A stretch of DNA of 46,072 nt. Source: Escherichia phage Jk06. Shown here one piece after another: positions 7,295 through 42,508 of the stretch (within the stretch, counting starts at the first letter, position 1; each line of letters opens with the position of its first letter). A program made the translations under genes and the position numbers. The DNA lies in sequence record DQ121662.1; one strand, 5' to 3'. Below the pieces are notes generated by a model, which did not search any database, was not told the origin of the DNA, and worked only from the letters and a program-made list of their open reading frames with translations.

Positions 7295-10200
7295 TTAACT
7301 ATAACCTCGCAAGAACTGGTAAGCCGTTCCGCCCTGCTGGAAGGACTGAGTAATCTCTTCCGCGATGATAACCCTGATACCAGATTCTAACTGTTTAGCG
7401 TCATTACCGCCACCACCGCCAAGACCTGTCTGAACGGTAACATTCACTCCACCAACATTAACGTTACTTCCACCAACAAGCCCGCCAGTCGCATAGCCAG
7501 GACCAGCACCAACCACTCCACCATTTGCGTATCCGCGCATTAACTTATAAAGGTTATCAACGCCAATCCTTGAGGTTGCCTCCTTCGTAAAGACGAATTC
7601 ACCTTTATGCACCGTGCCAGCTGGCTCGTACTTACCACCGTTTCCAGTATAACCGCCAGAAGCGAAACCAAATGCGCTACCAATAGAGCCAATTGCACCA
7701 CCACTACCGCCAAAACTGGAGATGGTTGATTCAATCGCCTTAATTAAAAGTAGCTGCGTTGCAATGCGTGCAATCTGCTTCAGAATCGATGCGGTAAACT
7801 CACGGAAGCTAGCTTCTCCAGTAGTTACCAGGTTTGTTATCTGGTCAGTCAATCCGTTAAAGGCACTCATGGCTAGCTCGGAACCAATCTGATTAAAGTT
7901 TGCCAATTCATCAGCCGTCTCAGCAAACGCAGATTTAACGCCAGCCAGCCAGTTACCACGTAATGCATCTTCCTGATTGTAGAAATTCTGACGAGCCTGA
8001 AGTAAAGCCTGGAAGTCAGTGTCATCTACGGAGCCACCTTTAGAAATTTGCTGGGCTTCTAGCGCCGCCAACTCACGCCGCCTTTCCGCTTCGCGCTGAG
8101 ATAATCCTGCTCCAACACTAATTGATGCCGCTTCAGCGTTAATCTGCCGAGTCTTCTTGATGTTGTCATCAAGAAGTTTATTGGCCCTTTCTTGCAGCAC
8201 AATCTGGTCGCCAATCTCAGCCTTCTCGCGAGCGAGTCCTAAGATTTTATCCTGCTGCAACAGTAATGATCGCTGTTGCTTTGTGATGGTTCCGTCTGCA
8301 AGCCTTTCATTAAGGATTGCAAACTTAGCTTCCTCCGCAAAAAGCTGCTTGCGTTCGTTACTGATAACATCACTAATCTGGCGGTGTTCCTGAAGAACCT
8401 TAAGCTGAGCCTGCAGAGCTAGAACGCCAGACTCATAACTTATAGTCAAATCCCTCTCTTCTTTTGCTCCAGATTTTGTCTTTTTACTTCTCTCCTCAAT
8501 TGCTTTAATCTCATCGGCCAAAGCCTTTCTTCTTGATTCTGAATCTCTATCAGAAGTTCCAGTTTGACTTTCTGAACCCTCTCCAACACTCAAGTAACCA
8601 GTCTCGCCCCTGCGAACCCTTGCATACCTATCAGCGATAGATTTAGCTAGCCTTATGTTTTCCTTTTCTATTGCGTCATTATCCTTCCTTAGTTGTTCGG
8701 CTATTCCATTACCAACGCCAGATGCTCCTGGTATCTTTTGTAAAGCCTCTATCCCGCGTATTACGAAATCATTTATTAGCTTGTCGCCAGTGCCAATTAT
8801 CAGTCTTATTTGCTCAATAGTCGCAGCTATAACGTCAGTAAATAGGTTTAGAGCTCCTATAGTCCTGTCACCTATAGCATCCCATGTGTCTGAAACGAAC
8901 TTACGGAAATCGCCCCAAGCCAATTCAAGAGGTGTAAGCGAGCCTTCAATCTGCTTTGTAACTGACTCATTTCTAGCTGCAAATATTTCTAAAGCTGCTG
9001 TTACTGCTGCTGTTTGCCCTTCCGTTTCTTTTAGGTTGTTAACTAGGGTCAGCTGCCCTTCGCTAAGAAAGTTAAATTGCTTATCTAACTCTATCAGCCC
9101 CTTAACTGGATCTTTTGCTATCTTATCAAAGTCAGATATTATTGATTTCCGCAGACCTTGAACTAACAGCTGAAAGGTTAGCAACAGACTTAGCTATTAA
9201 GTTAATCTGACTAACAGTAAGCCTTCCGTTTGATACTAGCGACTGGTAAATGTCACCAATAGAACCTTTTGTTGCCCTTGATGTTTCATTTAGCTGATCA
9301 GCGTAATCCTTGATAGCGGCAACTGATAAAGTCGACGACCTTCCAGTTTCAATTATTGCGTTATTAAGTTGCCTAACCTCAATAAATGAGTCGTAAGCGG
9401 CTTTACCAAGAACAGCTAATGAAGCAATTATCGCGCCACCAAATATAGTTGCAGCACGACCAAACCTTAAGATAGCCTCATCACCAAGAGTCCTAACATC
9501 AGCAAATGAACTTCTCAGCTCTCCTATTGATGATACATAATCTATAACTGCACCTTGCGCAGCTGATAATGTATTTGAAAATCCACCAAATGAATCTGTA
9601 ATCTGCGGTATTTGCTGGGTAAGCACCATAAATAAAGGCATACCGTTAGCAATCGAGCTAGTGATATCATTGATCTGTACAGGAAGGAACCTTAAGGCCT
9701 GATTGTACTGACCTGCCGATATCCCAGCCGCCTGAAACGCCCTACTTTGATTGGCTATAGCGTTAGTATTGTTACTTGATGCCTGTGTTATATCTATCTA
9801 TTATTGGTGCTGCCTGATCGCTAACTCCAAGCTGTGCCGCCCTTAACTTTAAGAACTCATCCCTACTTAATGTCGCTGCATCAGCCTGTGCTTGAAGCGA
9901 CCTAATAAATGATTGTGCTTGCCTCTCAGCGGACTCTTTATTTTTTGCAGCTTCTATAGCCGCCCTACCCTCCTCAGTTAATGCTGACCTAGACCTTATT
10001 AACCTATTTGTTTGCGTTTCTAATGCTTCACCAAGCCTGTAAAACTCAGCCTCTGGAACAACCCCTGCGGAGAAGGCTCTATCAAGAGAACTTGCTGCAT
10101 CTTGAAGTTTTCGCAATTTCGAAGCTGTTGGATCAATTGCCGACTGAAGCGACTGAAAAGCACTTCTCTGCTCAGAAAGATACCTTGCAGTGTCGCGAGC

Positions 10201-10352
10201 CTGATTCTTCGCAACCAGCTCAGCGTTTAACGAACTCGCTAACTCCAGCTGCCGCCTGTTCATTGGCACGTTTAAATTCTTGCAGGGACTTTATGCCCTG
10301 GATCAACCTGGCGAACGTCAACGCCAAGAGTGATACCTGCAAATTCTGCCAT
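7295..10352 (-). CDS. tail tape measure protein, reading frame interrupted at about 9.13-9.19 kb, 9.64-9.78 kb and 10.27 kb
   Basis: Track ORFs 9772-10269, 9132-9641 and 7295-9184 are contiguous, coiled-coil rich with a Gly-rich C-terminal part; ATG at 10352 preceded by GGAGG. Confidence 0.75.
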
Positions 10353-12942: not shown

Positions 12943-13307
12943 CTCGACCCACCAGAGGTAATCAAGCCCCAGCGGCCAACCTTGAGACGCATCAAATCAA
13001 TGTAAAGCTTACCCCATGAGGATTCCTCAAGGTTTGATGAGCTAGCTGCGGCAGTGCTTGTATCGTAGCTAATCGTGTACTCGCCTGAAAGTGAGTAGGA
13101 CTTAACCCGCTCAGATGATGTCTGGCTTGAATCATTCTCAGTCTTAAGTGCAATATCCTGGCTAAGCAAGTGAAGAGTGTAGAATGCCAGTGCCTGAACC
13201 TGCTTGTCACCAAACTTGTCTAAGCAGATGAATAGCTTGGCTACCTCAATCCATGCGTTAAGAACATCATCAGGCTGACTCTTAAGAGGCGGGTAAAGCG
13301 TGCGCAT
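12930..13307 (-). CDS. head-tail connector protein
   Basis: 125 aa ORF in the neck module; position-based call. Confidence 0.4.
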   Translation of the reverse strand: MRTLYPPLKSQPDDVLNAWIEVAKLFICLDKFGDKQVQALAFYTLHLLSQDIALKTENDSSQTSSERVKSYSLSGEYTISYDTSTAAASSSNLEESSWGKLYIDLMRLKVGRWGLITSGGSRCCR

Positions 13308-13620: not shown

Positions 13621-13666
13621 TTATTCCTCCTTTGTTTCGATTGTTTGATTATATAGCCATATAAAC

Positions 13667-13689
13667 AAAAATACCACCCCGAAGGGTGG
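13667..13689 (-). terminator. intrinsic terminator after major capsid gene
   Basis: CCACCCTTCGGGGTGG hairpin followed by a T-rich run on the minus strand. Confidence 0.55.
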
Positions 13690-13712
13690 TAAGTAGTAAG
13701 CAATAATTGCCA

Positions 13713-14659
13713 TTACGCGAAGGTGATGCCTTTCATTACAGCCATTGTCAAAGGACGATACACGATCAAGCCAGTTGCCTTAGAGGTTACTGGAATTTTG
13801 AAATGTAAATCCTTAGGCTGAGCTGGCAGCGCGTTAGTCGCTTCCGGAATCTCGATGGCCATGTTGTTAGGGTCTTTCTCATAAGCAATAGCAGCAGAGG
13901 TGCCAGTGCCATTGTAATCATTCAGGTACTGAACGAACTCAACAGTTACTCCGCTGTTGTTCTGGCGGAAGAACTCACCGTAGCTAACAGAGGTACCAGG
14001 AACCAGGTTCTGCATGATACGACGAGCGGTAGTAGGCAGAAGCAGGTGAGTTGCACGGTGCTGACCATTAGTTGAAGTCTCAATGATATCCAGCAGGCTT
14101 GTAATATCGCTTACTGCTGTAGTTGGTTGAGACCATGAGCCACCGCTAACAACGTTGTTGATATTTGGATAGTCGAACACACTCGGGATACCGTGAGCAG
14201 TAGAGCCTGACCATACCAGTTTATCAAGCAGCTTATCGTGAGCTTCGAAAGCAAGAGATTGCTTGCGAGTAGATAGTGACTGACCGGTAGCTTGACCAAC
14301 TTTAATTTCATCGATGGAAATCAAGAAAGCATTACCAAAACGGAAAACTTTACCCTGACGTTCAGTTGCTAAAGCGTCAACAAGTGGCAGGTCATCAGTG
14401 TAGTCAGCTACGATCTGAGCAATACCAACGCCATCAAATACCGGATACTCGAAGTACTTAGCATAGCCGGGAATTTCATTGCTTACAGGGAACAGGTTTA
14501 CTACGGAGTTCTGGTCGTACTCAGTTTCGTAAGCTTTATTCAGGCTTGCAGTTAGCTGCTTCACGGTCCAGATACCAGCCGCATCAGCCTTATCAACGCC
14601 CATAGCTCGCAGGTGGTTAGTAATCTTTTCTTGCTCGAAGCGTCAAGTTTGATAGTCAT
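13713..14659 (-). CDS. major capsid protein, frame change near 14600-14660
   Basis: 296 aa track ORF has capsid-like composition; ATG at 14659 with AAGGA RBS lies in a different frame 19 codons upstream of the track start. Confidence 0.8.
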
Positions 14660-14750
14660 ATTAAGATGCATCCTTTTGTTTATGAGTTTACGTGTCAATT
14701 ATACACGAGATTTTGGTTGGGACAATAGAGTAATCATTTCTCTATTGATT

Positions 14751-15587
14751 TTATGCATCAAGCCTTACTAGCTCTATGCATAGGGCTTGGTTTCCATTCA
14801 CAATGTATCCAGCTGTAAATAGATTTATGGTTGCTCTCCACATTGTGTCTGTTGTGGTTTCATAAAAACTAAGAGTGTATGGCCTGATACCTTGGAACTC
14901 TCCAATATCACCAAGAAGTACTGTGCCAGTTTCTGTTGATGTAGATATCGAAGTTCTTACCGTTGTGTTAGTGTAAACTCCAGTTTCATTGAACGCTTCA
15001 ATATTACCCCTTATAGTTCTAGCTGTAGTGCCATCATCAATCCAAGCCCTAATACTAAAACGAATGTTTGAATCCAGTCTTATCCCTATAGAAATATTGC
15101 TTAAAGGTGCTGGAAGCCTAATCATGTGATTAGTGCCTGTGTTTGGTGATGTTCTAACTTTAAGGAATGATCTTGACATCCCTGCGTCACCTTTATCGCC
15201 TTTAGGGCCAATTGGACCTTGAGGGCCAACCGGACCTTGTGGACCTGCTTCACCTGAACCTCCGCCCTCATCACTTACAAAATCACCTTTCGCCAGAGCT
15301 GAAATATAAGCGCCATCCTCGAAGTGGGCATTACCAAACCTTCGCCAGCCCTGTGCTAGATATCGGTTAACCCTGTTAACTAAACCCTGAATTGTGGTGT
15401 CTGATGTAACCATGAAGTCTTCAACGTTGTTTGCTGTTCCTTTTGCCATCTTCATGCCAAATAGGGTACCGCTCAGCATCTGCACGTCGCCATATGGCTG
15501 GAATCCTGATGAAATCATCATTTTTACGTTTCTGGCTAAGGTTTCAGGTGAATTACCTACTGCCATAGCAATTTCTGTGTAAGCCAT
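14751..15587 (-). CDS. collagen-like repeat protein (candidate head fibre / decoration protein)
   Basis: 278 aa ORF with G-X-Y run GEAGPQGPVGPQGPIGPKGDKGDAG between an N-terminal domain and a Thr/Ser/Asn-rich C-terminal domain; RBS AGGAG upstream. Confidence 0.6.
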   Translation of the reverse strand: MAYTEIAMAVGNSPETLARNVKMMISSGFQPYGDVQMLSGTLFGMKMAKGTANNVEDFMVTSDTTIQGLVNRVNRYLAQGWRRFGNAHFEDGAYISALAKGDFVSDEGGGSGEAGPQGPVGPQGPIGPKGDKGDAGMSRSFLKVRTSPNTGTNHMIRLPAPLSNISIGIRLDSNIRFSIRAWIDDGTTARTIRGNIEAFNETGVYTNTTVRTSISTSTETGTVLLGDIGEFQGIRPYTLSFYETTTDTMWRATINLFTAGYIVNGNQALCIELVRLDA

Positions 15588-15638
15588 CTTTATCTCCTGA
15601 TTGGTTAATAATCATTGACAGTCTAACAGTAAAGAGCA

Positions 15639-15662
15639 ATAAAAAACCTCCCGAAGGAGGTT
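15639..15662 (-). terminator. intrinsic terminator
   Basis: ACCTCCTTCGGGAGGT hairpin followed by a T-run on the minus strand, downstream of gene 15680-16147. Confidence 0.5.
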
Positions 15663-15679
15663 TGATTAAGCGTTTATAG

Positions 15680-16147
15680 TTATTTTTGGATAACCTGAAC
15701 CTCAACCAGTGCTGGCTCTCCAGATGCGGCATCAGCTGCCTGGAATCCACCTGCGAATGTCCAGTTAGTAGTTAAGGTGCCGCCGCTTGTTGCTAATCCA
15801 TTGGCATCAACGGTAACGGCGCTACCAAATGCAGGAGCTGCTGAAAGGCTAGTTGCCATCCAGATTCGACCGTGAGTCATTACGTTAGACACGGAGAAGT
15901 TGTCAACATCACCAGCAGAACCGCCATAAGTTCCCTTAGGAGACTCGTAATGCGACCTTACCAGGACGCCGTAAACATTACCAGATGCCGGAGCTACCAG
16001 CACCTTGTGACCATCAACAACAGAATCAACTCAACAGCAGTGCCAACATTGCGCACGAGAGCCCGAAGATGTTACACAGGCACCATCAATATTGTACAGA
16101 GAGGTATCTGCAACCATACCAGCAGTAGCTTGACGACGAATTGCCAT
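15680..16147 (-). CDS. hypothetical head-module protein (possible decoration protein), frame interrupted near 16000-16030
   Basis: ATG at 16147 with AAGGAG RBS opens a 38-codon frame that stops near 16030; track ORF 15680-16003 continues in another frame. Confidence 0.4.
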
Positions 16148-16158
16148 ATTAAGACTCC

Positions 16159-17268
16159 TTATTTTTTCAATTTAGCGAGGCGAGCGCGCGGGTCTAATTT
16201 CTTAGGCGCGTCGGCTGCGTCAGATTTATCCGCAGCAGCAACTGCTTTGCGGGCTTCGGCCATTTTATCACTATCTTTAGCGATATCAAAGGCTGCATCG
16301 ATGTATGCGTCAGATTTCTCAGCAACTTCAATACCAGACACTTCTTTAACGTAAGCAACTTTGATTGCTTTAGCATCCAGGCCATCACATTTAACGCCAG
16401 CTTCTGCGGCAACTGCGACCAGGGCAGCCATTTCGTCAGCATCAGTCTTAGCTTTGGCTAAAGCAGCTTCGATTTCAGCGGGGATGCCATCAACTTTAGC
16501 TTTCAGTGCGTCGCGCTCAGCTTCCAGAGTGTCAGCTTTAGCTTTAGCCTGCTCCGCATCAGCCTTAACAGCTTCGATATGCTTAGCAACTTCCGGGGCG
16601 ATTTCGAACTCCTGTTCGCCATCGAGTTTAATCTTAATCATCAATTTATCCTCTTTATTTGATTGAACGGTATCAGTATACGGGTTTTCCTGTTCCGCGT
16701 CCAGATTGAGTTTAGCAATACCTGCGCGACCTTTATATACGAGTGCGATATGATTAACAACGATATTCGTCTGTAGCGCATCAAAGCGTACCCAATCAGC
16801 AGGAATCTCATCCTGGCTTGCGTACTCTCCATCAAGCTTGTACTCACCCGTTTCATTACTACCCCAGCCAGGAGACTCAATGTCAACAGTGTTGTAGCCA
16901 ACAGAGAGCTCACCAGCAACGCCAGACTTGGCCTTCTCAATTGCTTCCTTGTCGTAAACGGTAAGAGGAACAATCACTGCAGAGTCCTGACGCATAGCTG
17001 AGCCAGACACAGAACCAACAACCACCTCTTTAGCATTTTCAGAGTTGACAACCACGTGGCCAAGAGTTAGCGGCTTACCCTGATAACTCTGCAGCGAATC
17101 GGCTTTAAAAACCTCTGAAGCCGGACGGAACTCTCGGCGCTCTGAACCATCTGGCATATAGTAGGTTTGTACACCTACGCGAGCAACCACTGGGGTGTCC
17201 ACGAGAAAACCGTTCTCATCGAAACGGGCTTTTACCTTGGCGCTATCATAACGCATTTTACTCTTCAT
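16159..17268 (-). CDS. scaffolding protein (possibly protease-scaffold fusion)
   Basis: 369 aa ORF with Ala/Lys/Glu/Asp-rich coiled-coil C-terminal half; located between minor head and capsid genes. Confidence 0.55.
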   Translation of the reverse strand: MKSKMRYDSAKVKARFDENGFLVDTPVVARVGVQTYYMPDGSERREFRPASEVFKADSLQSYQGKPLTLGHVVVNSENAKEVVVGSVSGSAMRQDSAVIVPLTVYDKEAIEKAKSGVAGELSVGYNTVDIESPGWGSNETGEYKLDGEYASQDEIPADWVRFDALQTNIVVNHIALVYKGRAGIAKLNLDAEQENPYTDTVQSNKEDKLMIKIKLDGEQEFEIAPEVAKHIEAVKADAEQAKAKADTLEAERDALKAKVDGIPAEIEAALAKAKTDADEMAALVAVAAEAGVKCDGLDAKAIKVAYVKEVSGIEVAEKSDAYIDAAFDIAKDSDKMAEARKAVAAADKSDAADAPKKLDPRARLAKLKK

Positions 17269-18022
17269 TAATTAAATTCTCCCATTTAGGAACAGCCCAG
17301 CAACGACACCCGTATTGCTGACCGGGGAATATCGCAAGGCCGTCAAGTTTTCCAGCGTCCGAACCATCTGATTTAAAGCTAACCCCCTCACGCAAAACGT
17401 GAGATGGTCGCTCTTTGTCGTCAAGTCTACCACGCCAAACATACTGAGATACACCGGCATCTTCAAGCCTTCTCCGCATAAGGTTTGAGTTTAGAGACCC
17501 TGTAATTCCAGCAGCGATATTTGCTGTTCTCTTTCTGTAGATTCGGTATCTATCATCAAGGTCAACAGTGTTACCAGCCTGCGCAGTAATGGCGTTGTTT
17601 ATGAAATCATCCTTGATGTTGTTTAGCAGCTTTGATGCACTTAACTGCGTGCCAACAATCCAGGAGTTCCTGGTGTCGAGCCACCATGGTTCATCCGCGT
17701 TAATACCATACAATCCTAGCGCAAGAACTACAGGATTATTCTTACCTCCGGAGTTGTTGGCCACCTTAAGGAATTGCGCCGAGTTATAACGATATATTGC
17801 TAGCGCCAGCGCAGGCAGAGTGGAAACAAAACCAGATAGCAGCGCTGAGATTGCATCTGAAAGGTCTGAATCTTCATCTTCAATCTCCTGCGCTGTGTCA
17901 ATTTTTAGCCTCTTTGCAGATAACTTCATTTGCTCAATAAGTTCAGATACCGCAACCAAAAGGCTGCGGTTAATCTGGCTCTCAATTATTTGCGGATACA
18001 TCCAGCGGGTCTTCTGATTCAT
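17258..18022 (-). CDS. minor head / head morphogenesis protein (Mu F-like, SPP1 gp7-like)
   Basis: 254 aa ORF ending with a GCRCWAVP-type Cys motif; directly downstream of the portal gene. Confidence 0.7.
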   Translation of the reverse strand: MNQKTRWMYPQIIESQINRSLLVAVSELIEQMKLSAKRLKIDTAQEIEDEDSDLSDAISALLSGFVSTLPALALAIYRYNSAQFLKVANNSGGKNNPVVLALGLYGINADEPWWLDTRNSWIVGTQLSASKLLNNIKDDFINNAITAQAGNTVDLDDRYRIYRKRTANIAAGITGSLNSNLMRRRLEDAGVSQYVWRGRLDDKERPSHVLREGVSFKSDGSDAGKLDGLAIFPGQQYGCRCWAVPKWENLINEE

Positions 18023-19255
18023 TAATTACAACCTCCGTTTGAATTGAGCCTTCACCAATCTTAACCTCAGTTGAAATTGCGCGCAACGTATCTCTTGCTT
18101 CGTCTGCGTCAATGATTCCAGCTGCAATCAATGCAGCAACTGAGTTAACATTCTTCTCAAGAATCTCAGATTTATCCTTGTCACTAACCTGCGATAGAGG
18201 GTTAAATTCTACTGACCACTCTTGCTCGGTTACGATGAACGGCAGCAGGAACTCAAGCAGAGGCAATAATTCAGCCTTTCGCTTACGGTCAACATAACCG
18301 TAGAAAGTCTCTAGAGCAGTGTTCTGGCTTGCTGACACACCACCAACATTCTTACCCTTAAGGATAATCTCATGAATACCGCTCAGAGCAACGATTCGAT
18401 CGAACTTCTGACTCAGAAATGTATCAATACCGCCAATATCTGAGTTGAGAACGTTGTACTCTTCACTATCCGCGTCAATCCCGATAGCCTGACCAACGCC
18501 ACTGTTATTATCCACTTGAGCCAGACGTAAACGAGCTGCTCCATCTGAATCATCACATAAGTCAGCAAGGCCTTTTGCTTTCCACACTCGCCTGCTGTTT
18601 ACGACGAAGTAACTGAGTAGCTCAGTCGCTCACAGTTCTGATAGTCGTCAATCGCGTCAATTAAGTCACTCAGTTATTACTGCTTGCGCTCCCAGCCATC
18701 GTTATTACGACGTAGGTTGTTAGGTACTCGCTCGCCATCAATGATGTGACAGCGTGTATAGTGCACATCGTAGAACGTTGCCGACCCGTTTGGCGTGATG
18801 CGGTAAGTTAATGGCTTACCAAAACGCGCGTTACGTGGATTCTCCTCGCGAGTCTGGACCTTAATTTGCTGCCGGTCGTATACACGAACCGTTTCAAGCT
18901 CCGCACCTTCACGAACCGGGCTGGTTAGCGCCCTTCCATCCTTCACAATTGCCACTACAGCAGCGCCACCGTATAGTCTCGCCCAGGCTAGTGCGTCGAT
19001 TACGTTATCTGAAAGGCCTAAATCATCCCATCGCGACCAGAATGCACCCTCATCATCAATGCCTTCAATGTTAAAGCCTGCGCCAAGCGCGACCTCTGGC
19101 ACGATATCAATAATTCGACGAACCAACGCACTACTGACGTAAAGCTGCTCAAGCTGTGCTGGAGCTGTCAGGCCAAGGCCGCCAAACTTTCCGTAAATCT
19201 CGCTACCATCAATCCCGTTAAGAAAGATGTTTGCGTAGCTATCTGCTTTTACCAT
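17982..19255 (-). CDS. portal protein, frame interrupted near 18590-18680
   Basis: Track ORFs 18677-19282 and 17982-18587 are contiguous; likely start MVKADSY at 19255 with RBS GGAG. Confidence 0.75.
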
Positions 19256-19270
19256 GTAATTTCTCCAATA

Positions 19271-19297
19271 AAAAAGCCCCATGTAGGGGCTAGTTTA
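19271..19297 (-). terminator. intrinsic terminator after moron gene, overlapping portal RBS
   Basis: AGCCCCTACATGGGGCT hairpin followed by TTTTTT on the minus strand. Confidence 0.55.
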
Positions 19298-32000: not shown

Positions 32001-32548
32001 ACTACTTCCATTAATTTATTCAAAGAACCATCTATATCACCACTATCTAGTTTCAAATCAACCTCAATCGCACCAGTATTGTAAAGGTATGACCTGGAAT
32101 CACCTGAGAAATCAAAGCCATCCCTATGAAGCCTTACAATCATAACATCAACGCCATTAGATAATAGTGGCTCAATTTCTGAACGCAAAACCACCGTCAG
32201 AAGAAACATAGAATCCATCAACAATCTTGCTGTACAGCCTCTTTCCGAACACGTCATTCCCAAACACTGGCTTCATTACAACTTCGCTAATCCATATCAT
32301 AACTCTCTCGGGGTTTTTCCACCAAGAAATGACTGATGGGACTCCTTGAATGACCTGTCGTCATAATTTTCAATAAATTTATCAAAATCATCTTTTGATA
32401 AAACACCTCTTGCAACATCAAATATTGGTGATTTGAATGATAATTTTTCATCAAAAAAACCAGATGTAACAAGAATATCAGCTAGCGTGTCCTTGCCGCA
32501 ACCCGCTGGACCATTAAGTACGACTAATTTCTTCATTTTATTCCCCAT
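31982..32548 (-). CDS. P-loop nucleotide kinase (dNMP kinase-like), frame interrupted near 32263-32300
   Basis: Walker A LNGPAGCGKDT in ORF 32297-32548; ORF 31982-32263 continues downstream in another frame. Confidence 0.5.
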
Positions 32549-33011
32549 GTGATTCGCAGTCTTTTGGTAAATTTTCGTAGCTTCTTACCTGCATAACACA
32601 GTAACCATTACTCCTTAAGTGTCTTATTACGTTTGGGTTATCCTCAAAAACTATACATTCATCAACTCCGTCTGTATTTTTCTCTAGCCACTCAAGTTTA
32701 ATATCAAAATCCTTTCTGTTATCTTCTCTATTTCTCATAGAGATTTCGCTGTACATTACATTATTTCTTTTAAGCCAGGATACTGTTTCATTCTTACACT
32801 CATCGCTCCTAGATGTGAGCAATACTACACGCTCACCTTTCATATAAAGACTATTCATCATATTTATGATTTGAGTCTTTGGCTCGTCATTCACACATGC
32901 AGAGTTGTAATTCCTCCAAGATTCTGTTAAGTGAAGATTATCTTTAGGCAGTAAATGCTGCCTTTTCTCATTTAAAGATATCGTACCATCTATATCAAAA
33001 ACATAAACCAT
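32538..33011 (-). CDS. HAD-superfamily phosphatase (nucleotidase / polynucleotide-phosphatase-like)
   Basis: N-terminal motif VFDIDGTI (DxDGT) and a later acidic motif; 157 aa. Confidence 0.55.
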   Translation of the reverse strand: MVYVFDIDGTISLNEKRQHLLPKDNLHLTESWRNYNSACVNDEPKTQIINMMNSLYMKGERVVLLTSRSDECKNETVSWLKRNNVMYSEISMRNREDNRKDFDIKLEWLEKNTDGVDECIVFEDNPNVIRHLRSNGYCVMQVRSYENLPKDCESHGE

Positions 33012-42025: not shown

Positions 42026-42508
42026 TTGGAGTTAATAGTAATGCTCTTACTGCAGTATAACGTGATGGCATCAGGAGAACACAGTGTCTCATTGTTAATA
42101 TCAGCATCAGGTGAAACAAGAGTTTTATCAGGTGTGTTGCCAGTCTCATCAAGAATGGTCAACGGTGGTACTTACAATATTGCTCTTGGTTTTGATGTAT
42201 CTGGTAAGGTTTGGTGGAGCATCTTAAACCTGAATACTGGATTTAGAGTTAGAAGGTCATTTGATTCTCAGTATATAGATATTGATGTCAGACCTATACT
42301 AACAACAGCTGGTAACTATGTAACCATGTATTCAGGTCAAGGCGCTGGTGATGTAGCTTGCTCTGGATATGGCTTTGGTGTTTACGTTGGCAGCTATTCA
42401 GATGAGTCTGATTATTGCGCTTCAAGATACTATTCGCTTAAAGGTGGTGTTGATTTGACAAAACAATCAGTATTTTTGAGTTTGAATGGTGATGTAACGT
42501 CACAATAA
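42026..42508 (+). CDS. hypothetical protein downstream of tail fibre gene (possible fibre-associated protein)
   Basis: 160 aa ORF, Gly/Ser/Tyr-rich; ends at a bidirectional terminator. Confidence 0.4.
   Translation: MELIVMLLLQYNVMASGEHSVSLLISASGETRVLSGVLPVSSRMVNGGTYNIALGFDVSGKVWWSILNLNTGFRVRRSFDSQYIDIDVRPILTTAGNYVTMYSGQGAGDVACSGYGFGVYVGSYSDESDYCASRYYSLKGGVDLTKQSVFLSLNGDVTSQ

Follow-up and report, generated by a model that had tools for sequence, protein, structure and literature searches.

A collagen-like virion protein of Escherichia phage JK06 as a candidate capsid-anchored head fibre

Phage SPP1 carries gp12, a non-essential trimer that occupies the hexon centres of the capsid and hence represents a 3-fold object on a quasi-6-fold site. 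In the Shiga toxin (Stx) phage phi24B, cryo-electron microscopy revealed the DUF1737 domain to bind the central pore of the capsid hexon as a hexamer, plugging the hexon at each face centre of a capsid of triangulation number T=9, with Tyr42 acting as a ‘tooth’ in the pore; its authors name DUF1737 a capsid-binding domain (bioRxiv 10.64898/2026.04.10.717836). A third protein, gp21 of phage vB_EcoS_Rogue1 (Drexlerviridae, Rogunavirus), was identified by matrix-assisted laser desorption/ionization tandem mass spectrometry (MALDI MS/MS) at 59.5% coverage in CsCl-purified virions, as one of three analysed bands, running at 52.7 kDa on the gel, beside the major capsid and major tail proteins; the 2012 report assigned it neither location nor function (PMC3496638). 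Here, we describe the ortholog of Rogue1 gp21 (YP_007112223; 481 amino acids, aa) in Escherichia phage JK06, a collagen-like protein whose gene occupies the same position. The window, i.e., the whole stretch of DNA analysed (NC_007291; 46,072 bp, opening with acgcgtatatcaaatagcac), encodes it on the minus strand within the head module. We propose, with a probability of about 0.68, that this protein is a trimeric head fibre or decoration protein, anchored to the capsid and non-essential.

Domain architecture and virion presence

In the proposed arrangement, two tandem DUF1737 domains would fix the protein to the central pore of the major-capsid-protein hexon. The G-X-Y run (aa 109-138) would join three chains as a short collagen triple helix, at whose tip the C-terminal beta-sandwich (aa 139-278) would serve as an exposed adhesion module. 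With two anchors on each of three chains, six domains would fill the six sites of the hexon pore and place a 3-fold fibre on a 6-fold site; because of this stoichiometry, the anchors would match the hexameric DUF1737 ring of phi24B. The putative binding partner is the PF09950 major capsid protein.

The evidence for the anchor derives mainly from profile comparisons, which assign aa 1-107 to two tandem DUF1737 (PF08410) domains. The whole protein scores 24.1 bits against the Pfam model (E 3.4e-5), which marginally exceeds the gathering cutoff of 24 bits and results from adding two copies that each fall below it (17.2 and 13.7 bits). For either half by itself, DUF1737 is the best-scoring Pfam family, matched over the same part of the model (E 0.0046 for repeat 1, 0.058 for repeat 2), and the ortholog of phage Bas01 reaches 26.7 bits. 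Aligned to one another as profiles (hhalign), the two halves match over 47 columns with a probability of 97.3% (E 1.7e-11). phi24B gp84, whose N-terminus is a genuine DUF1737 (65.4 bits), aligns through its residues 1-38 to the family alignment of repeat 1 (hhalign probability 96.8%, E 2.3e-10), with the EGWQPYGS motif in common, and to the half-2 profile at a probability of 86.5% (E 4.6e-6). Profile methods were needed for this link, since tblastn with the phi24B DUF1737 returned only Stx/lambdoid phages and one Burkholderia phage, and no Drexlerviridae. At the positions equivalent to gp84 Tyr42, which belongs to a hairpin outside the aligned region, repeat 1 carries L42/F43 and repeat 2 a tyrosine.

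Structure prediction with AlphaFold2 (AF2) from an 11-sequence alignment agreed with the profiles. The model contains two strand-helix-strand-strand units (predicted local distance difference test, pLDDT, 70-88) and thus the helix on three antiparallel strands that characterizes the DUF1737 fold. With strands denoted E and helices H, repeat 1 comprises E5-11, H14-26, E30-39 and E42-49 (pLDDT 72-88), and repeat 2 comprises E54-63, H66-78, E82-90 and E93-102.

Relatives of the anchor are few. A HMMER search with aa 1-107 in 1.84 billion representative sequences returned 16 matches at E <= 0.001, about 10 of them true family members, and the complete ones all possess an N-domain of ~105 aa followed by collagen; word-index searches of large protein databases gave 1, 1 and 4 matches. 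Searching the PDB by sequence, whether with the protein or with the repeat-1 profile, yielded nothing relevant, and Foldseek with the full model gave zero PDB matches at E <= 0.001, no solved DUF1737 structure being found in the PDB copy searched.

The initial annotation of this DNA, made from its letters, had described a run of G-X-Y triplets linking an N-terminal to a C-terminal domain. The peptide that it quoted, GEAGPQGPVGPQGPIGPKGDKGDAG, is indeed found in the translation, and the run consists of 10 uninterrupted triplets, five of which carry Pro in the X position. At a glycine content of only ~10%, such a run cannot be due to chance. The JK06 protein does not match the 60-residue Pfam Collagen model (PF01391) at E <= 0.01 because its run extends over only 30 residues; the Bas01 ortholog matches it with an E of 2.1e-29. 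The collagen triple helix rises by ~0.29 nm per residue. On this textbook value, the stalk would measure ~9 nm in JK06 and ~50 nm in Rogue1, which has ~183 collagen residues.

The C-terminal domain was said to be rich in Thr, Ser and Asn, and these residues account for 30.5% of it, compared with 19.4% in 14 structural proteins taken together. A Foldseek search of BFVD found 16 phage proteins at E <= 1e-3, among them the collagen-like protein of BECP10 (TM 0.73) and ‘tail fibre’ proteins of JS10 and Aeromonas phage 65.2. All matches involve the C-terminal domains of phage proteins, which argues for a phage-specific fibre-tip fold; no similarity was found to the C1q/TNF-like 10-strand jelly roll of BclA and collagen VIII/X. 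The shallow alignment lowered the quality of the model in this domain.

These tip matches lend themselves to a different explanation, namely that the protein is a tail, neck or side fibre whose N-domain docks on a tail or connector protein and whose gene lies in the head module by happenstance. Annotations point the same way: phrog_5073, which matches the 278-aa protein with an E of 1.8e-76, and many of the collagen matches are labelled ‘tail fiber’, RefSeq names the orthologs ‘tail fiber protein’, and mass spectrometry of Rogue1 virions cannot tell head from tail. However, these labels were assigned automatically, and it is the collagen repeat that prompts them. The family-specific part of the protein is the tandem DUF1737, a domain that its sole structural data place on the capsid hexon, and no homology of the N-domain to a tail or baseplate attachment domain was found. 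We therefore consider a tail location improbable, a judgement to which the distribution of the anchor among related phages, described below, also contributes.

The GenBank records of JK06, phiKP26, C119, phiJLA23 and Sf12 annotate the protein as ‘DNA polymerase I’, and phrog_22681 is labelled ‘DNA polymerase’. Taken with a terminator-like hairpin upstream of the gene and with its atypical composition, these labels might indicate a non-structural product, be it a polymerase or a moron without a role in the particle. Such an interpretation is very hard to sustain: Pfam finds no polymerase domain, the ortholog was recovered at high coverage from purified virions, and the polymerase annotation has been called incorrect (PMC3496638). 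The polymerase identity was rejected on these grounds. The initial annotation had made a structural role depend on presence in virions, and the detection of gp21 in Rogue1 particles places the ortholog there (PMC3496638).

Gene position, anchor co-variation and cassette exchange

Between positions 13000 and 18000, the window is 98.2% identical to Rogue1. As the initial annotation had noted, the collagen-like gene lies between the scaffold/decoration region and the major capsid gene; the order on the minus strand is MuF-like, protease/scaffold (DUF2213), cement protein (PF22758), collagen open reading frame (ORF) and major capsid protein (PF09950) (Table 1), that is, outside the tail module.

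Table 1 Features of the collagen-like gene of JK06 and of its neighbourhood (window coordinates, unless a relative is named).
Feature	Position	Strand	Remarks
Collagen-like virion protein gene	14751..15587	-	278 aa, ATG start; AGGAG at 15594..15598
DUF1737-like repeat 1 (aa 1-53)	15429..15587	-	Predicted strand-helix-strand-strand; GFQPYG motif, family consensus EGWQPY
DUF1737-like repeat 2 (aa 54-107)	15267..15428	-	Tandem duplicate of repeat 1
Deletion junction, 11-bp microhomology GGTCCGGTTGG	15227..15237	-	609 bp (203 aa) of Rogue1 gp21 absent, in frame
Collagen-like run (aa 109-138)	15174..15263	-	Regular expression on translation; predicted triple-helical stalk
C-terminal tip domain (aa 139-278)	14754..15173	-	Thr/Ser/Asn-rich; predicted 10-strand beta-sandwich; low GC at third codon positions; exchangeable cassette
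Terminator-like hairpin AAACCTCC-TTCG-GGAGGTTT, then T-run	15644..15663	-	Between cement and fibre genes; pattern scan and direct reading
Capsid cement gene (PF22758)	15680..16146	-	Upstream neighbour; Pfam E 8.9e-16
Protease/scaffold gene (DUF2213)	16159..17268	-	Upstream of cement gene
Major capsid gene (PF09950)	13713..14659	-	Downstream neighbour; Pfam E 1.4e-41; true start ATG 14659 (Rogue1 alignment)
SGNH/GDSL hydrolase genes of relatives	Sf12 L003 2127-3419; Opt-719 L005 2633-3919; Bas01 L009 2129-3418		Annotated ‘head decoration’ or ‘putative head outer capsid protein’

The slot between the cement and major capsid genes is kept in every relative inspected (Rogue1, phiJLA23, Sf12, Opt-719, BECP10, phiEB49, Bas01 AugustePiccard and one Logan contig, spanning Rogunavirinae and Braunvirinae), a conservation that speaks against a tail fibre placed there by happenstance. 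By tblastn, the anchor is present in 40 phage records, all Drexlerviridae, as compared to 107 records that match the head region. The fibre gene is hence accessory, and its presence in only 40 related records leads us to infer that it is dispensable.

The anchor varies together with the capsid protein. Expressed as amino-acid identity to JK06/Rogue1, the anchor and the major capsid protein (MCP) are 100% and 99% identical in Rogue1, and 98% each in Sf12 (cement 76%, DUF7444 94%, DUF4054 93%). In BECP10, anchor identity falls to 28% and MCP identity to 72% (cement 58%, DUF7444 60%, protease 93%, DUF4054 94%); Bas01 shows 27% and 74% (cement 51%, DUF7444 54%, protease 82%, DUF4054 46%), and phiEB49 20% and 74% (cement 59%, DUF7444 54%, protease 73%, DUF4054 95%). 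The divergent block of BECP10 comprises exactly the cement, fibre, capsid-protein and DUF7444 genes. Because this block is bounded by the conserved protease and DUF4054 genes (93-94%), the anchor is inherited with the capsid-surface genes, which, judged from these comparisons, seem to be swapped as a single cassette. Co-variation of anchor and MCP would fit a capsid partner, although plain linkage would yield the identical pattern. That the anchor follows the capsid-protein allele, and not the tail genes, further reduces the appeal of a tail location.

The distal part of the protein follows a different path, and the swapped distal domain envisaged in the initial annotation is borne out by two relatives. 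Sf12 gp57 combines the 98%-identical anchor with an unrelated C-terminal domain. Conversely, UPEC06, a 143-kb myophage of the Vequintavirinae, encodes a protein of 532 aa in which collagen, the central domain known from Rogue1 gp21 and a 69%-identical tip lie behind a different N-terminus; the DNA there is of similarly low GC (0.37-0.41). In UPEC06 the cassette of collagen, CBM5/12-like domain and tip adjoins a large collagen protein upstream of tail genes, which could be held in favour of a tail fibre in JK06 as well; yet a different N-terminus is what would be expected if this part of the protein sets the attachment site. In gp53 of phiEB49 (L008 3492-4181), the tandem DUF1737-like anchor leads into an Ala/Gly-rich segment that contains the motif WGDVTGKPSTF, and a helical stretch forms the C-terminus; since this anchor precedes a non-collagen segment, it apparently accepts fibres other than collagen. 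On comparative grounds, the collagen and tip are exchanged as a cassette independently of the anchor. We propose that stalk and tip would form a horizontally exchanged, AT-rich cassette and that the anchor would stay with the capsid gene. Together with the DUF1737 anchor and the SPP1 gp12-like slot, the anchor/capsid-allele co-variation lends indirect support to the earlier suggestion of a head, as opposed to tail, fibre or decoration protein.

The AT-rich distal half that the initial annotation had seen by eye was followed up by windowed GC and codon comparisons. The distal part is AT-rich as claimed: the C-domain has a GC content of 0.388, against 0.44 for the genome and 0.46-0.51 for the flanking genes. 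The synonymous-site shift starts at the boundary of N-domain and collagen rather than in mid-gene, GC at third codon positions (GC3) being 0.42 in the N-domain and 0.27 in both the collagen run and the C-domain. Over the 171 codons of collagen run plus C-domain, GC3 is 0.269, below the minimum of 0.368 among 165 windows of 171 codons taken from 14 structural genes (mean 0.461, standard deviation 0.040); the gene-level value genome-wide is 0.437 +/- 0.07. The total GC of the distal part lies at the 10th percentile of genome-wide 423-nt windows, and the composition is thus odd for the structural module and not for the genome. The low GC3 of the collagen run may stem from the codon choice for Gly and Pro (GGT, CCA). 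ORFs with a GC3 as low as that of the fibre tip (0.27-0.33) also occur at 9132-9641, 32297-33011 and 42041-42508; these are possibly further horizontally acquired segments, and the first may be a spurious ORF inside a fragmented tape-measure region.

Some relatives carry an additional gene between the cement and fibre genes, encoding an SGNH/GDSL hydrolase of ~430 aa with an N-terminal domain of ~170 aa (Table 1). It recalls the capsid-bound esterase of phi24B; no DUF1737 anchor was detectable on the hydrolases of Sf12, Opt-719 and Bas01. Downstream of the capsid gene, Rogue1 has an HNH homing-endonuclease gene, gp23 (~490 bp; L001 2151-2636), directly after a terminator hairpin. The corresponding spot in JK06 (window 13621-13712) lacks a gene of this type, and a Logan relative has an HNH_3/AP2 gene at the gp23 site (L011 2828-3301). 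A promoter-like TTGTCC-N16-TATAAT lies at 14698..14725 between the fibre and capsid genes. The pattern scan for promoters and terminators performed at background level (5 promoter-like matches against 5.4 expected, 4 terminator-like against 2.5) and was used descriptively only.

Internal deletion relative to Rogue1 and quality of the record

By tblastn, two segments covering 90% of the JK06 protein align to Rogue1 gp21 with 100% identity. At the nucleotide level, the JK06 gene agrees with Rogue1 in the prefix register as far as gene nt 361 and, from nt 351 onwards, in the suffix register, two substitutions being the only differences in the remaining gene. Absent from JK06 are most of collagen run 1, a central domain of ~49 aa (LTFRGMYDAATAYVKDDVV...) and collagen run 2. 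The two runs of Rogue1 gp21 comprise about 98 and 85 residues; ~150 collagen residues are gone. The central domain has a weak match to Pfam CBM_5_12 (E 8.8e-4). Kropinski et al. noted in 2012 that JK06 is without an internal region bordered by GPVGP repeats; they considered an intein as the identity of the extra Rogue1 region and rejected it (PMC3496638), the region being collagen plus a CBM5/12-like domain. We suggest that the JK06 allele would have arisen through the in-frame loss of 609 bp between two copies of GGTCCGGTTGG in a gp21-like gene.

Alternatively, the 278-aa form could be an artefact of the JK06 record, due to a collapsed repeat or mis-assembly, in which case the true fibre would measure ~481 aa, its function would be unchanged and the short stalk would not exist. 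Numerous errors, many of them frameshifts, have been reported in this record (PMC3496638), and comparison with close relatives reveals single-base indels in three genes nearby. In the cement gene, an extra G (TCGGGC vs TCGGC) and a missing G 31 nt downstream, as judged against Rogue1 and phiJLA23, leave a 107-aa ORF of a 155-aa gene, probably through sequencing error in G runs. The capsid gene is short of one T at 14604-14659 (GACGC-TTCGAG vs GACGCTTTCGAG), so that the ORF in the record begins at 14603 and not, as in Rogue1, with the ATG at 14659. The portal gene seems split into two 201-aa ORFs (17982..18587 and 18677..19282, minus strand) whereas the Rogue1 counterpart is a single gene of 424 aa. 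Signs of fragmentation are also seen in the tape-measure region (about 7295-10263), in agreement with the published remark on JK06 frameshifts.

The collagen region is also scrambled in other assemblies: that of phiJLA23 contains runs of N (L004 2501-3320), the Opt-719 fibre gene is split in two (L005 4001-5512), and a Logan contig shows a different collapse junction and a frameshift (L010 1199-2016). Collagen repeats of this fibre gene are routinely collapsed or frameshifted in public assemblies. Still, a microhomology-mediated deletion looks likelier than an overlap collapse, since the junction is clean, in frame and located at just 11 bp of perfect identity. The remainder of the gene is otherwise nearly unchanged, and short homologs occur naturally: the BECP10 protein, with 12 triplets, is 282 aa long, and 8 triplets suffice for SPP1 gp12. 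All in all, an artefact strikes us as rather unlikely.

Weight of the evidence and comparison with known systems

Several points weigh against a capsid-anchored head fibre. Support for attachment to a Drexlerviridae capsid is indirect for the collagen-like protein and its orthologs, and proteomics of the AHP24 group, for which only seven excised bands were analysed, lists no homolog among its proteins. The DUF1737 score of the whole protein sits at the Pfam threshold, and the alignment to gp84 ends before the Tyr42 hairpin. The AF2 models are monomers, neither trimer nor ring. The capsid-binding role of DUF1737 comes from a single preprint, in which only the flat face-centre hexons of phi24B were occupied (bioRxiv 10.64898/2026.04.10.717836). 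Further, the phi24B capsid protein (PF13252, from a T=9 podophage) shows no BLASTP similarity to the PF09950 protein of JK06. The tip fold and cassette are common to proteins annotated as tail fibres, and the error-prone record means that the short allele could be artefactual.

Tentatively, and at somewhat less than even odds, we extend the head-fibre proposal by a structural and evolutionary scenario. The tandem DUF1737 duplication may be an adaptation that turned a 6-fold plug into a 3-fold fibre base, forming a pseudo-hexameric ring and thereby resolving the symmetry mismatch in a manner unlike SPP1 gp12. T1-like heads would carry interchangeable adhesins of variable length, with cassettes traded with the tail fibres of unrelated phages (Vequintavirinae), and the 609-bp deletion would be one case of rapid variation in stalk length.

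The presence of the ortholog in the virion and the missing internal segment of JK06 are already published (PMC3496638). As far as our literature searches show, the reading of the protein as a head fibre with a tandem anchor, and the 3 x 2 geometry, have not been published. If correct, the head fibres of a whole set of T1-like coliphages have gone for 20 years under the wrong names ‘DNA polymerase I’ or ‘tail fiber protein’; these phages would span Rogunavirinae and some Braunvirinae, including candidates for therapy and biocontrol as well as the BASEL phage Bas01. The DUF1737 capsid anchor would then reach beyond the Stx podophages to siphophages whose capsid protein belongs to another family, and a structural rule is suggested in which two anchors per chain times three chains make six sites. 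A dispensable anchor tolerating payloads as varied as long and short collagen, different tips and the non-collagen fibre of phiEB49 would suit phage display, and capsid-borne adhesins could affect binding to host surfaces or mucus.

Among described proteins, Rogue1 gp21 is the ortholog, but with its long collagen and central CBM5/12-like domain it differs from the JK06 protein, which keeps 10 triplets. The NanS-p esterase gp84 of phi24B resembles the JK06 protein in that an N-terminal DUF1737 anchor, a homologous domain of one helix and three strands, precedes a functional payload. It is a homo-hexamer of chains with a single DUF1737 copy, whereas each JK06 chain has two copies in tandem; its payload is an esterase that is cleaved off, as opposed to a collagen stalk and tip; and the capsid proteins of the two phages belong to different Pfam families and probably to capsids of different T numbers.

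The collagen tail fibres, exemplified by the UPEC06 protein and the prophage collagens of E. coli O157 (PMC3368898), have the same cassette of collagen, CBM5/12-like domain, collagen and beta-sandwich tip, with a different N-terminal attachment domain and no DUF1737. T4 Hoc, T5 pb10 and phi29 gp8.5 follow the same logic of a dispensable surface adhesion module on a capsid-binding domain (reviewed in PMC7602432); their folds, Ig-like monomers and a coiled-coil trimer, are unrelated to the JK06 protein. SPP1 gp12, with 64 aa and 8 G-X-Y triplets against 10 in JK06, is encoded directly upstream of the major capsid gene, as is the JK06 protein, but has neither a DUF1737 anchor nor a globular tip. 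BLASTP detected no homology between the two beyond the repeat, where the G-X-Y run aligns in several registers. SPP1 gp12 is the closest functional analog of the JK06 protein, which is not itself a member of the gp12 type.

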